Numbered from the stretch's first letter, positions 568 to 43,477 are shown. The stretch is DNA of 44,807 bases from a virus (IMGVR_UViG_2541047834_000005:1-44807); one strand, 5' to 3'. The notes: generated by a model from the letters alone, not told the origin. Numbers and translations: made by a program.

Positions 568-582
568 TTAGTATAAAAAAGC
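568..582. repeat. att core, ttagtataaaaaagc (reverse complement of lambda GCTTTTTTATACTAA), junction with host B' flank
   Basis: Exact 15-mer; adjacent outward sequence cgctcaag...aaacgggaagg matches the attB B' side. Confidence 0.9.
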
Positions 583-740
583 TGAACGCGAAACAGCAAA
601 AGCCAATAATATCAATGTCTTAAAATAAATTTAGTCTAAAAAATAGACTGCATGATACTACAAAACACAACATATCCAGTCACTATGAATCAACTACTTA
701 GATGGTATTAGTGACCTGAGACAGAGCATTAGCGCAAGGT
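583..740. other. Lambda-type attP P-arm (Int/IHF/Xis binding region) inside the prophage
   Basis: Contains caggtcactaataccatctaagtagttgattcatagtgac (reverse complement), which I recognise as lambda P-arm sequence. Confidence 0.65.
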
Positions 741-925
741 GATTTTTTGTCCTCTTGCGCTAATTTTTTGTCATCAAACATATCGCACTCCAGAGAAGCA
801 CAACACCTTGCAGTCCAGTGCAAAGCTTTGTGTACCAGAGTTTTCCTCATCAACTACCGCAAGTATCGATCGATTGAGACTTGGATGATAGACTTCATAC
901 CTTTCAGAACTCATTGATTAAATAA

Positions 926-1288
926 ATGTTAAATATATTTGCAAGGTACACCTCGATTGGTGTGCTGAACACACTTATACACTGGGTGGTTTTTGGTGTA
1001 TGTATCTATGCCGCGCATACCAATCAGGCTCTGGCAAACTTCGCAGGTTTCGTTGTGGCTGTGAGTTTTAGCTTCTTCGCGAATGCAAAATTCACATTCA
1101 AAGCATCAACTACAACGATGCGCTACATGTTATATGTCGGGTTCATGGGAACACTCAGTGCTACTGTTGGATGGGCTGCTGATAGATGCGCACTTCCCCC
1201 GATGATAACTCTTGTCACCTTCTCCGCCATCAGCCTGGTGTGCGGTTTCGTCTATTCAAAGTTCATTGTCTTTAGGGATGCGAAATGA
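926..1288 (+). CDS. gtrA: GtrA bactoprenol-glucose flippase
   Basis: 120-aa polytopic membrane protein matching GtrA of serotype-converting phages. Confidence 0.85.
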
Positions 1289-2202
1289 AAATTTCTTTAG
1301 TCGTTCCGGTCTTTAACGAAGAGGCCACGATACCTATTTTTTATAAAACTGTGCGCGAATTTGAAGGGCTTCAGCAGCATGAAGTCGAGATAGTCTTCAT
1401 AAACGATGGCAGCAAAGACGCTACAGAATCAATTATCAACGAGCTCGCTGTTGCCGACCCGCTTGTGGTTTCGCTGTCGTTCACACGTAACTTCGGCAAA
1501 GAACCCGCCCTGTTCGCAGGTCTGGACCATGCTACCGGGGAGGCAATTATCCCGATTGACGTTGATCTGCAAGACCCTATCGAAGTTATTCCTCACTTGA
1601 TAGAGAAATGGCAGGCCGGTGCAGATATGGTTCTGGCTAAACGCTCTGACCGCTCCACTGACAGCAGGCTGAAGCGTAAATCTGCTGAGTGGTTCTATAA
1701 ACTTCATAACAAAATCAGCAACCCTCAGATAGAAGAGAATGTTGGCGACTTCCGGCTCATGTCTCGCGAAGTAGTAGAAAATATTAAGCTCATGCCAGAA
1801 CGAAACCTGTTTATGAAGGGTGTGCTGAGCTGGGTTGGTGGTCGAACCGATGTCGTAGAATATGCGCGAGCAGAACGCGTTGCAGGAAGCACAAAGTTCA
1901 ATGGATGGAAGCTATGGAACTTGGCGCTGGAAGGGATCACTAGCTTCTCAACATTCCCGCTTCGCATGTGGACCTATATTGGGTTATTTATTGCATGTAT
2001 ATCATTTACATACGGTTCATGGATGATAATTGATAAATTAATTTTTGGTAATAATGTACCTGGATACCCTTCAATTCTTGTATCAATATTATTTCTTGGC
2101 GGCATCCAGTTAATTGGGATTGGAGTGCTCGGTGAGTATATTGGTAGAATTTACATTGAAGTTAAGCAGCGTCCAAAGTATGTACTTAAGGGTAAAAAAT
2201 GA
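1285..2202 (+). CDS. gtrB: GtrB bactoprenol glucosyltransferase
   Basis: 305-aa GT2-like protein (VVPVFNEE...DGSKD...) with C-terminal TM segments; overlaps gtrA stop. Confidence 0.9.
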
Positions 2203-3674
2203 GCAAGAAGCTTGAGCTTTTATATTGGCTGGCAACATTTATTGTATTATCAATAATTTACTCAATGATTGCTAAAAACATAATTCCAAACTCAGATGTC
2301 ATGTCTTCATTCAGAGAGGCAAGGGATATTACTGAAGGAAATATTTTTCTCAGTGGGTGGGATTTATCAACTGTATCATTCTATTTCACAGAAATAATAC
2401 CATATGCTATAGCGATAAAAATAATAGGATTTAATGAAAATCTGTACTATATTGTGCCTGGAGTTTTCATGTCTATATTAGTAACACTATCGCTATATAT
2501 CTCTCATACTAAAAGTAGGGCATCGTTATGGCCTGTTCTTTCTGTATTTGGAATTCCAACGGTTTTCTCATCAAGTATAATGCTTATAGCATGTATACAT
2601 ATTGGTGCGTACATTTACATGCTGGCGATCATACTAATAATAGATAGATACAGAAAGAAAAATGATTTAAAATTACTTTTTCCATATGTATTTATGTTAT
2701 CGTTGCTTGTTTTTAGTGATGATATATCTAAATATGCCTTTATAATACCTATAGTTTTTGTTTGCATATATAGAATGTATGCTTCTCTAATGAAAAGAGA
2801 TTCGTTGAATACTAATGATTTGTTATTGTTGGTTTTCACTATATCATCTATATTTATTGCTGAGATCATATCATTTATATTCATTAAGCTTGGTGGATTT
2901 AACCTGCCAGGCATAACCAAACCTCACATAGTAGAGTTTCAACAAATAACAAGCAACATATCTCTTGTTATCATGGGCGTATTCAAATTTTTTGGTGGGT
3001 ACGCGTTTGGAATGGAGATAGGTAGCTTTAACTCATTATTCACCATGATAAAGGTGTTTTTCATTTTTGTATTCTTATTTTTATCTTATAAAAACATTCT
3101 TAAATTTAAAGAAATTGATTTTATTGACCAGGTTCTTATTGTATCATCATTAGTCATGTTGATTGCCTATGTTTCAAGTGACAGGCCAACAAATCTTTTC
3201 TCAATTAGATACATAGTCCCAACATTTATTTTCATGTCAATTGTGATTGCTAGAAATTCTTTCTCCTTACCAGTGAAGACAAATTTACTAATATCATTAA
3301 TCGTTATTGCGTTATCGTTGCCAACGATGGCAACAACAAAAAACATTGTTAATAAAAATGATATTACAATAGAATTAAGAGATTTCTTAATAAAAAATAA
3401 ACTACAAAGAGGTTATGCATCATTTTGGTTTGCATCATCTGTTGCTGGATTTAGTGATATCAACGTAGCTCCATTTGAGTCGTATGGTGATAGATTCACA
3501 CCATATAATTGGTTATCAAAAAAAGAATGGTACCAAAAAGGAGCTAATTTTTTAATTGCTGATGATGTAGAGCAAGAGGAAAAGGCCATAAAACAGTTTG
3601 GGCAGCCTGATAGCACTCATAAAATACAAGACAAAAAAGTTCTTATTTGGAAAAATGGAATAGATTCACTTTAG
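2199..3674 (+). CDS. Serotype-specific O-antigen glucosyltransferase (Gtr type-specific, polytopic membrane protein)
   Basis: 491-aa highly hydrophobic, strongly AT-rich ORF overlapping the gtrB stop; third position of a gtrAB-gtr(type) cassette. Confidence 0.7.
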
Positions 3675-42017: not shown

Positions 42018-42122
42018 CCACAGCCTCACACTCGATGAGGCCAGTTCATTTCTCAAGATATCCAGACCTACCATCGCCGCATCAATGCGGCTTTTCTTGC
42101 GTGTAATTGCGGAGACTTTGCG

Positions 42123-42341
42123 ATGTACTTGACACTTCAGGAGTGGAACGCACGCCAGCGGCGCCCAAGAAGCCTTGAAACAGTTCGTCGATGGGTGCGC
42201 GAATGCAGGATATTCCCTCCTCCGGTTAAGGATGGAAGAGAGTATCTGTTCCACGAATCAGCGGTAAAGGTTGACTTAAATCGACCAGTAACAGGTAGCC
42301 TTTTGAAGAGGATCAGAAATGGGAAGAAGGCGAAGTCATGA
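42123..42341 (+). CDS. xis: Excisionase Xis (lambda type)
   Basis: 72 aa, MYLTLQEWNARQRRPRSLETVRRWVRECRIFPPPVKDGREYLFHESAVKVDLNRP..., matches lambda Xis. Confidence 0.9.
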   Translation: MYLTLQEWNARQRRPRSLETVRRWVRECRIFPPPVKDGREYLFHESAVKVDLNRPVTGSLLKRIRNGKKAKS

Positions 42342-43389
42342 GCGCCGGGATTTACCCCCTAACCTTTATATAAGAAACAATGGATATTACTGCTACAGGG
42401 ACCCAAGGACGGGTAAAGAGTTTGGATTAGGCCGAGACAGGAGGATAGCAATCACTGAAGCTATACAGGCCAACATTGAGTTATTTTCAGGACACAAACA
42501 CAAGCCTCTGACAGCGAGAATCAACAGTGATAATTCTGTTACGTTACATTCATGGCTTGATCGCTACGAAAAAATCCTCGCCAACAGAGGAATCAAGCAG
42601 AAGACACTCATAAATTACATGAGCAAAATTAAAGCAATAAGGAGGGGTCTGCCTGATGCTCCACTTGAAAACATCACCACAAAAGAAATTGCGGCAATGC
42701 TCAATGGATACATAGACGAGGGCAAGGCGGCGTCAGCCAAGTTAATCAGATCAACACTAAGCGATGCATTCCGAGAGGCAATAGCTGAAGGCCATATAAC
42801 AACAAACCCGGTCGCTGCCACTCGCGCAGCAAAATCAGAGGTAAGGAGATCAAGACTTACGGCTGACGAATACCTGAAAATTTATCAAGCAGCAGAATCA
42901 TCACCATGTTGGCTCAGACTTGCAATGGAACTGGCTGTTGTTACCGGGCAGCGAGTTGGTGATTTATGCGAAATGAAGTGGTCTGATATCGTAGATGGAT
43001 ATCTTTATGTCGAGCAAAGCAAAACAGGTGTAAAAATTGCCATCCCTACAACATTGCATGTTGATGCTCTCGGGATATCAATGAAGGAAACACTTGATAA
43101 ATGCAAAGAGATTCTTGGCGGAGAAACCATAATTGCATCTACTCGTCGTGAACCGCTTTCATCCGGCACAGTATCAAGGTATTTTATGCGCGCACGAAAA
43201 GCATCAGGTCTTTCCTTCGAAGGGGATCCGCCTACATTTCACGAGTTGCGCAGTTTGTCTGCAAGACTCTATGAGAAGCAGATAAGCGATAAGTTTGCTC
43301 AACATCTTCTCGGGCATAAGTCGGACACCATGGCATCACAGTATCGTGATGACAGAGGCAGGGAGTGGGACAAAATTGAAATCAAATAA
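42319..43389 (+). CDS. int: Integrase Int (lambda type tyrosine recombinase)
   Basis: 356 aa matching lambda Int; overlaps xis; adjacent to att core. Confidence 0.95.
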   Translation: MGRRRSHERRDLPPNLYIRNNGYYCYRDPRTGKEFGLGRDRRIAITEAIQANIELFSGHKHKPLTARINSDNSVTLHSWLDRYEKILANRGIKQKTLINYMSKIKAIRRGLPDAPLENITTKEIAAMLNGYIDEGKAASAKLIRSTLSDAFREAIAEGHITTNPVAATRAAKSEVRRSRLTADEYLKIYQAAESSPCWLRLAMELAVVTGQRVGDLCEMKWSDIVDGYLYVEQSKTGVKIAIPTTLHVDALGISMKETLDKCKEILGGETIIASTRREPLSSGTVSRYFMRARKASGLSFEGDPPTFHELRSLSARLYEKQISDKFAQHLLGHKSDTMASQYRDDRGREWDKIEIK

Positions 43390-43462
43390 TGATTTTATTT
43401 TGACTGATAGTGACCTGTTCGTTGCAACAAATTGATAAGCAATGCTTTTTTATAATGCCAAC
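43390..43462. other. Lambda-type attP P'-arm (Int arm-type sites) between int and the core
   Basis: Reverse complement reads ...CATTATAAAAAAGCATTGCTTATCAATTTGTTGCAACGAACAGGTCACTATCAGTCAAAATAAAATCATTATTTG, recognised as lambda P' arm. Confidence 0.7.
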
Positions 43463-43477
43463 TTAGTATAAAAAAGC
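43463..43477. repeat. att core, ttagtataaaaaagc, junction with host B flank
   Basis: Exact 15-mer identical to 568-582. Confidence 0.9.

Follow-up and report, generated by a model that had tools for sequence, protein, structure and literature searches.

An apparently intact SfV-family prophage with a gtrABC cassette at the lambda attachment site of Escherichia coli, related to 042p1

Introduction

Prophage 042p1 (ROD15) of the enteroaggregative Escherichia coli (EAEC) strain 042 is bounded by a 15-bp direct repeat and has one half related to lambda and P22, a structural half highly related to phage SfV, and GtrA and GtrB encoded at the tail end (Chaudhuri et al. 2010, PMC2808357). Among the related Shigella phages, SfI, SfII and SfV have been seen by electron microscopy to be contractile-tailed myoviruses, and SfI is a mosaic with an SfV-like left and a lambda-like right part (PMC3636060). 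An O44 gtr prophage has also been noted in a review of O antigens, in which the O17/O44/O73/O77/O106 group is described as having diversified via prophage gtr genes (PMC7685785). Here we examine an element of this kind, known from its genes alone, which occupies positions 568-43477 of the viral sequence IMGVR_UViG_2541047834_000005:1-44807 (hereafter the window, 44,807 nucleotides in all). We read it, with a probability of about 0.9, as a temperate prophage of 42,910 bp that appears intact and belongs to the serotype-converting lambdoid myoviruses of the SfV/SfI/SfII family, inserted at attB-lambda of E. coli, with 042p1 as its nearest described relative.

Results

The prophage occupies attB-lambda

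The 15-bp lambda attachment core, GCTTTTTTATACTAA, occurs in exactly two copies in the window, at 568-582 and 43463-43477, where none would be expected by chance. The two copies enclose 42,910 bp with a GC content of 49.6%, in which three islands of low GC stand out: gtrC (30.6%), the region of two inserted genes discussed below (41%) and a 440-bp insertion in the tail region (40.5%). On the outer side of the first core, which is attR (POB', minus strand), lies the host gene ybhB (1-477, plus strand, bio side), whose product is 100% identical at the amino-acid (aa) level to the annotated ybhB of PCP06238. On the outer side of the second, attL (BOP', minus strand), lies ybhC (43524-44807, plus strand, gal side), likewise 100% identical in aa to annotated ybhC. 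In E. coli, attB-lambda lies between these two genes, and in many prophage-free genomes the homology to the ybhB flank stops precisely at base 582. The original prediction of a prophage at attB-lambda, spanning 568-43477 between ybhB and ybhC, is borne out by these boundaries.

The genes and sites for integration are of the lambda/HK97 type. Both xis (42123-42341) and int (42319-43389) lie on the plus strand; Int is 98.6% identical in aa to that of lambda, 99.2% to that of HK97 and 100% to that of 042p1, and the corresponding values for Xis are 98.6%, 100% and 100%. Int carries the lambda Arm-DNA-bind_1 (PF09003) and Phage_integrase (PF00589) domains. The attachment arms had been expected to be very close to lambda, which holds for the P' arm, since the block containing it together with int and xis (42092-43477) is 98.2% identical at the nucleotide (nt) level to lambda 27724-29109. 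It does not hold for the P arm as a whole (583-837, minus strand), as the region 564-837 is only 87.6% identical to lambda 27470-27742; even so, when this arm is aligned with lambda and HK97, the columns of the Int arm sites P1 and P2 and those of the sib hairpin do not vary. A duplicated core, Int and Xis orthologues, and arm sites with sib, the components of a lambda-type integration module, are thus all present. A tRNA scan found no tRNA gene in the window, and searches of it with Rfam (gathering thresholds) and for long repeats returned nothing relevant.

The same design is found in 042p1 and in many E. coli genomes

Both halves of the window were compared by megablast with a phage collection of 50,697 records and a set of 5,426 complete E. 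coli genomes, and the genome counts given below refer to the latter set. Prophage 042p1 occupies the same ybhB/ybhC site and shares the order int/xis, lambdoid early genes, lambda-family holin, HNH endonuclease, P27 TerS, HK97-type head, Mu-type tail and gtrABC beside ybhB. It is 98.7% identical in nt to window positions 1-23020, and 71% of the window's prophage aligns with it, while about 29% does not. Apart from Int and Xis, the two have in common gtrA and gtrB, a gtrC that is 100% identical in nt, and the S holin. They differ in the repressor (cI 52% identical in aa, that of the window being HK620-type), in replication (O with a primase-helicase in the window, O with DnaB in 042p1) and in recombination (Erf/Abc2 in the window, RecT in 042p1). 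In addition, 042p1 has a different type of Rz/Rz1 and lacks the moron genes at 23196-24383.

The joining of lambda integration, lysis and nin modules with an HK97-like head, a Mu-like tail and a gtr cassette at attB-lambda had been called unusual, and one may ask whether these modules were newly joined here to give a new type of phage. No record in the phage collection joins a lambda-type int and att to this virion module, the matches to SfI, SfII, SfIV and SfV start only just beyond the P arm, at query position 272, and these Sf phages carry P22/SfX-type integrases and use tRNA-thrW. However, 042p1, with the same design and site, was published in 2010, the ybhB-attR-P arm-gtrA junction is present in 91 of the 5,426 genomes, and 45 of them contain 80% or more of window 1-25000 with its ybhB flank. 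HK97 moreover shows that the int/att cassette circulates among lambdoid phages, and SfI provides a published mosaic myovirus. A new type is therefore very unlikely, and the description as unusual does not stand. A database check for the whole element as a well-characterised phage, which the original prediction had proposed as a possible refutation, gave a divided answer: no single such phage matches the whole, whereas the design is that of an already described prophage. The exact mosaic is new to the databases searched, while its kind is already known and published.

Among isolated phages, SfI, SfII, SfIV and SfV are the best matches, and SfII and SfI cover 83% of the left half. SfII, SfI, SfIV and SfV share with the window the lambdoid genome order and a gtrABC cassette beside attP on the side opposite int, but integrate at tRNA-thrW with P22/SfX-type integrases, in contrast to the lambda-type Int and the ybhB/ybhC site of the window. 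Their gtrC alleles are unrelated to that of the window (no tblastn match), their gtrAB genes are about 80% identical in nt, and their tail fibre has a different C-terminus. The head module of SfV is also of a different type, with a capsid protein only 25% identical. Lambda and HK97 have an identical att core and int/xis products 98.6-100% identical in aa, and S, R, NinB, NinE and NinF of lambda are 90-99% identical; the closeness to lambda that had been proposed for int, xis, S, R, NinB and NinE is thereby confirmed at 90-99% aa. By contrast, the window lacks cI, O, P, exo/bet/gam and rex of lambda. Phage mEp043 matches 28048-32593 and 35970-39076 at 97-98% nt identity (97.9% for the latter segment). 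Lambda, HK97, HK620/HK630 and mEp043 are all siphoviruses or podoviruses; their virion genes are unrelated, and they have no gtr cassette. One further candidate, vB_EcoM-689R6, gave a strong virion match but was set aside as a relative, since it is a prophage of the e14 site (icd), has a different integrase and lacks gtr.

A recombination joint lies within the lysis genes

The nearest relatives of the left half, the prophages of PCP06238 and MZ1211, are 99.9% identical to the window up to 25388 and then continue with an SfII/CPS-53-like early region. This point falls within the lysis cassette (24411-25712, minus strand), which consists of SfV-type Rz1 and Rz (DUF2570/LysC; Rz and Rz1 84% and 77% identical in aa to those of SfV, and not lambda-type), the R endolysin (24929-25405; 91% aa to lambda) and the S holin (99% aa to lambda). 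Because the near-identity to the PCP06238/MZ1211 prophage (99.85% in nt) ends at 25388, inside R, and the S holin to the right of it is of the lambda/mEp043/042p1 type, the lysis cassette contains a recombination joint inside a conserved gene. On sequence similarity, the element is a recombinant whose left 25.4 kb consists of a PCP06238/042p1-type virion module plus gtr and whose early half is drawn from mEp043-, HK620-, HK97- and 042p1-like segments.

So sharp a change of nearest relative inside R, together with a right half found whole in no genome, is also what an assembly chimera would produce, with an SfII-like prophage joined artificially to an unrelated lambdoid prophage. Against such an artefact, the R open reading frame (ORF) is intact (158 aa) and overlaps S by 17 nt as in lambda, the ends of the element are the matching halves of one attB/attP exchange next to the correct host genes, 042p1 in a finished genome has the same overall order, and mosaic joints within conserved lysis genes are an ordinary feature of lambdoid phages. 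We regard a chimera as extremely improbable, and a natural recombinant as the reading that these data favour.

The gtr cassette tracks an O-antigen group

The three gtr genes (926-3674, all on the plus strand) adjoin attR on the side opposite int. gtrA (926-1288) encodes an undecaprenyl phosphate-glucose flippase (PF04138; 87% aa to GtrA of SfV), gtrB (1285-2202) a bactoprenol glucosyltransferase of family GT2 (PF00535; 87-88% aa to GtrB of SfV and P22), and the third gene (2199-3674) an O44-type, gtrC-type serotype-specific transferase corresponding to Ec042-0853. GtrC has 491 aa, with about 10 hydrophobic or transmembrane segments followed by a hydrophilic C-terminus of about 110 aa, a topology shared with GtrII and with GtrC of P22. 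For this protein, tblastn gave no similarity to any other GtrC, there is no Pfam or NCBIfam match, and a homologue search returned only 19 unnamed proteins, such that its specificity is not readable from annotation. The proposed cassette of gtrAB plus a type-specific glucosyltransferase is nevertheless supported by the PF04138 and GT2 matches and by a polytopic protein in the GtrC position. GtrA and GtrB, a polytopic third protein and an allele that tracks the O-antigen backbone are the three components of a Gtr system, and all are found here. A Dam/OxyR phase-variation switch of the Salmonella type was considered upstream of gtrA and rejected, as a single GATC is present there where multiple would be expected.

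The gtrC allele is 100.0% identical in nt to Ec042-0853 of strain 042, which is O44:H18, and occurs in 12 of the complete genomes. At least 9 of these 12 carry the wzx/wzy pair of O17/O44/O73/O77/O106, a pair found in 94 of the 5,426 genomes, and 12 of the 15 best matches to the left half belong to the same O-group. More generally, the number of genomes with a gtr prophage at attB-lambda (91) is close to that with the O17/O44/O73/O77/O106 wzx/wzy cluster (94), and the two sets overlap strongly. Other prophages of this kind, for example those of DG341-1, GN06156 and M7424, have different gtrC alleles in the same prophage position and the same O-group. Since gtrC is identical to the allele of strain 042 and tracks the O17/O44/O73/O77/O106 cluster, the window predicts an O44-type O antigen. 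That the lysogen would make a glucosylated O44-type O antigen is a well-supported, indirect prediction, and the earlier suggestion of a modified O antigen stands at that strength.

Evidence for and against an intact prophage

Several observations weigh against the reading of the element as an intact, serotype-converting prophage of this family. No database record spans the whole of it: the right half is covered at 80% or more by none of the phage records or E. coli genomes, the best complete genome reaching 57%, and the inducibility of this particular recombinant is a prediction from its genes. The host O-antigen cluster lies beyond the window, which makes the O44 assignment indirect, and the activity and linkage specificity of GtrC are deduced only from position, topology and association with an O-antigen group. 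Finally, the nin region contains a damaged gene. This gene, for a Dam-like methyltransferase (28398-28951, minus strand; a homologue of mEp043 gp57 and HK97 gp62), is frameshifted near 28826-28835 by a short duplication, which repeats the peptide GFWLDS, and is a pseudogene within an otherwise intact nin region.

Such damage could mean that the element is a defective (cryptic) remnant, in which gtr has been kept for lysogenic conversion while phage production has been lost. The frameshift would fit this, as would an OB-fold ORF without a canonical start codon, an inverted tail-fibre-assembly fragment annotated in the near-identical PCP06238, and the fact that the exact mosaic was not found in the 5,426 genomes. 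Every gene that we counted as essential is, however, full-length and aligns at 93-100% aa identity, with about 100% coverage, to relatives that include phages isolated as particles; these genes are int, xis, cI, cro, N, Q, O, primase-helicase, S, R, Rz, HNH, TerS, TerL, portal, protease, capsid, neck, sheath, tube, tape measure, baseplate and fibre, so that virion, lysis, replication and regulatory functions are all represented. Both att sites are perfect, and the defects are confined to accessory functions, namely the Dam-like methyltransferase and the OB-fold ORF. A remnant is accordingly unlikely, and we call the prophage apparently intact because its essential genes are full-length and both of its att sites are perfect.

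Two moron genes oppose the late operon

Between the HNH gene and Rz1 lie two genes on the plus strand, opposed to the late operon. The block that contains them (23030-24420) is present in 15 of the complete E. coli genomes, always beside an Rz1/LysC gene, and is absent from the 50,697-record phage collection, except for a weak similarity of the ClpP domain to head proteases.

The first gene, moron A (23196-23744, plus strand), encodes a HepS-like solo HEPN protein of 182 aa (phrog_5483) with no Pfam, NCBIfam or PADLOC match. HepS is a solo-HEPN abortive-infection protein of the Salmonella prophage Gifsy-1 (Sargen et al. 2026, PMC13043305), to which moron A is 20% identical. In an alignment of 16 sequences, the residues R96, N97, R99 and H101 of the Rx4-6H HEPN motif are invariant; the AlphaFold model is confident (pLDDT, the predicted local distance difference test, 88) and has the HepS fold. 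The match of the family profile to HepS is marginal (E=0.0034) and covers only 55 residues, over the motif. Homologues occur as single reverse-strand morons in the lysis-terminase gap of other enterobacterial prophages. The carrier here is a myovirus without a J-type tail tip, so that moron A, if it belongs to the HepS branch, could never trigger its own sensor.

The second gene, moron B (23823-24383, plus strand), encodes an N-terminally truncated ClpP paralogue of 186 aa (PF00574), which lacks the N-terminal ~60 residues of ClpP. In an alignment with E. coli ClpP, it keeps the catalytic Ser and His and loses the Asp. Its best solved relative is PpClpP1 (PDB 9uxt, E=1.6e-32), a truncated Ser-His-Pro ClpP that fails to bind ClpX, yet assembles together with canonical ClpP and increases proteolysis (PMC12900304). 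Temperate phages of Enterobacterales carry homologues of moron B as solo reverse-strand morons at differing sites: one in the gap between lysis and terminase genes, one after an mnt-like gene of a P22-like prophage, and one within the baseplate genes.

We considered whether the two genes form a two-gene system and rejected this, as either gene has homologues that stand alone at a variety of moron sites. Because each is found alone as a moron in other enterobacterial prophages, A and B are independent cargo genes that are stacked here by chance, and their function in the prophage can only be inferred. We tentatively suggest that both are prophage-expressed host-protection genes of little-studied kinds, A being a distant HepS-branch nuclease and B a ClpP partner that alters ClpXP proteolysis, a possibility that we hold to be clearly less than probable.

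Virion genes

The structural genes lie on the minus strand, and window 5009-22669 is 97.5-97.9% identical in nt to Shigella phage SfII. The packaging set at 20320-23020 comprises TerL, a P27-type TerS and an HNH endonuclease, as expected for cos packaging (Pfam TerL_ATPase/nuclease, Terminase_4 and HNH). It is followed by the head region (15573-20308; 99-100% aa to SfII), with YmfR, portal, S78 prohead protease, the HK97-fold major capsid protein (17037-18242) and neck proteins, for which Phage_capsid, Peptidase_S78 and Phage_portal are the Pfam matches. Compared with HK97 itself, the head genes are 25-35% identical in aa, and there is no separate scaffold gene, which places them in the HK97 type at family level. 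The proposal of HK97-type head and terminase genes with an HNH is upheld by these Pfam families at that level.

The tail terminator, a gp38-like protein, sheath, tube, tail assembly protein and tape measure follow at 10758-15576 (98-100% aa to SfII/SfV, with Pfam sheath and tube matches), and the Mu-type baseplate genes at 5314-10311, which encode N (DNA circulation), P (hub), gp45/V, gp46, gp47/J and gp48 (97-100% aa to SfII, 30-43% to Mu; Pfam DNA_circ_N, GpP, Mu_Gp45, GP46, Baseplate_J and Mu_Gp48). Homologues of gp38, L, N, P and gp45-48 are 30-43% identical in aa to those of Mu and stand in Mu order, the sheath being 36% identical to Mu L; the homologue of Mu M, the tube, has no tblastn match to Mu and is assigned from Pfam Tail_tube alone. 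Pfam families, identities and gene order thus agree with the Mu-like myovirus tail that had been predicted. As far as sequence comparison goes, the terms HK97-like and Mu-like hold at family level only. HNH, P27 TerS, an HK97-fold head and a Mu-type contractile tail together make up an SfV/SfII-type virion module. The pairing of HK97-like head genes with Mu-like tail genes is stated in the SfV record's own notes, and was reportedly described for SfV by Allison et al. in 2002.

Between the DNA-circulation and tape-measure genes lies the 440-bp insertion (10316-10754, plus strand), which appears as a gap in the alignments with SfII and SfV. Within it, the ORF at 10340-10726 has no ATG, GTG or TTG start and begins with ATT at 10340; its counterpart is annotated as an OB-fold protein in PCP06238 and 042.

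The tail fibre assembly gene (3973-4377) and the tail fibre gene (4378-5310) close the module on the minus strand. The fibre is chimeric, with an N-terminal third that is 94% SfII-like and a C-terminus formed by a different Gly_rich_2 domain, as would fit a receptor different from the O antigen of S. flexneri. The inverted tail-fibre-assembly fragment is annotated at 3873-4001 in the sequence of PCP06238, which is 99.85% identical. It may be what is left of an invertible host-range segment; a gene for an invertase is lacking.

Nin, replication, immunity and early-left genes

To the right of the lysis cassette, the region 26250-29388 (minus strand) contains the Q antiterminator (Phage_antitermQ) and a nin region with NinH, RusA, a small ORF, a NUMOD4-HNH protein (HNH_3/NUMOD4), NinF, NinE, the Dam-like methyltransferase and NinB. 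NinB is 98.7%, NinF 96% and NinE about 90% identical in aa to the lambda proteins, and 26076-28403, spanning Q, NinH, RusA, NUMOD4-HNH, NinF and NinE, is 99.8% identical in nt to 042p1. The replication genes (29448-32480, minus strand) encode a Toprim/DnaB-like primase-helicase, an O-like initiator and a small ORF, 98-100% identical in aa to mEp043 (Pfam Toprim_2, DnaB_C and Phage_rep_O).

The immunity region (32470-35157) has cII and cro on the minus strand and cI, hkaS and N on the plus strand, and is 98.6% identical in nt to HK620/HK630. CI contains HTH_3 and Peptidase_S24 domains. It shares 43% aa identity with lambda cI, and Cro 63% with lambda Cro, values that place the region outside imm-lambda. 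On this evidence, the immunity is HK620-type and not lambda-type, and the lysogen should be sensitive to lambda. The idea of a resident lambda-immune-type site thus holds for the attachment site, as attB-lambda is occupied and split into attL and attR, but not for immunity. The gene hkaS (33871-34260, plus strand; 129 aa, phrog_6534) follows cI directly, where lambda has rexAB; it has no Pfam, PADLOC or NCBIfam match, and its co-transcription with the repressor in the lysogen is probable.

The early-left region (35166-42017, plus strand) encodes a TolA-like coiled-coil protein, cIII, kil, Erf, Abc2, an Ea22/DUF551-like protein and other ea genes (Pfam ERF, Anti-RecBCD_p2 and DUF551). Closeness to lambda had been suggested for cIII and for part of N, and is confined to short stretches: cIII (37064-37195, 43 aa) is 69% identical to lambda over 35 aa, which cover the conserved central helix only, and 72% to P22 c3, and N matches lambda over its C-terminal 36 aa only, at 58%. 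Erf (37559-38194), thought to be very close to P22, is 75% identical in aa to P22 Erf and 99% to Erf of HK97 and mEp043, so that its near relatives lie elsewhere. Residues 116-218 of the Ea22-like early protein (39531-40220, plus strand) match the PADLOC model DpdH (E=5e-37), the only PADLOC match obtained, with none for either moron gene or hkaS.

Discussion

The components described above are read from the sequence, and the following account of how they would work together follows from the families to which they belong. A lambda/HK97-type Int would recombine attP with attB at the 15-bp core, and the element keeps Xis, the arm sites and sib, which would serve excision. In the lysogen, an HK620-type CI, with its HTH and S24 autopeptidase domains, would silence the prophage until RecA-stimulated self-cleavage, while gtrA, gtrB and gtrC, beside attR, would be expressed. 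GtrB would load glucose onto undecaprenyl phosphate, GtrA would flip it, and the allele-specific GtrC would add it to the O unit, predicted to be of the O17/O44/O73/O77/O106 backbone, converting it to O44. This glucosylation would alter the serotype and probably block re-adsorption of related phages. Induction would involve antitermination by N and Q, the O-type initiator with the primase-helicase, the Erf/Abc2 recombination functions, HNH-assisted cos packaging into an HK97-fold head, a Mu-type contractile tail, and lysis by S, R, Rz and Rz1.

As a phage type, the element adds little, being one more recombinant of a family whose design, serotype conversion and morphology are documented. It does illustrate how freely modules are exchanged under a near-constant half made up of virion genes plus gtr, both the int-att cassette of lambda/HK97 and the modules for immunity, replication and recombination. 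What deserves most attention is the O44-type gtrC as a predictor of serotype, together with the HepS-like and ClpP-like morons. The gtrC allele predicts an O44-type glucosylated O antigen, whereas in-silico serotyping by wzx/wzy cannot separate O44 within O17/O44/O73/O77/O106. The two morons are candidates for prophage-encoded protection and, if this proves true, co-assembly of moron B with host ClpP, as for PpClpP1, could affect superinfecting phages.

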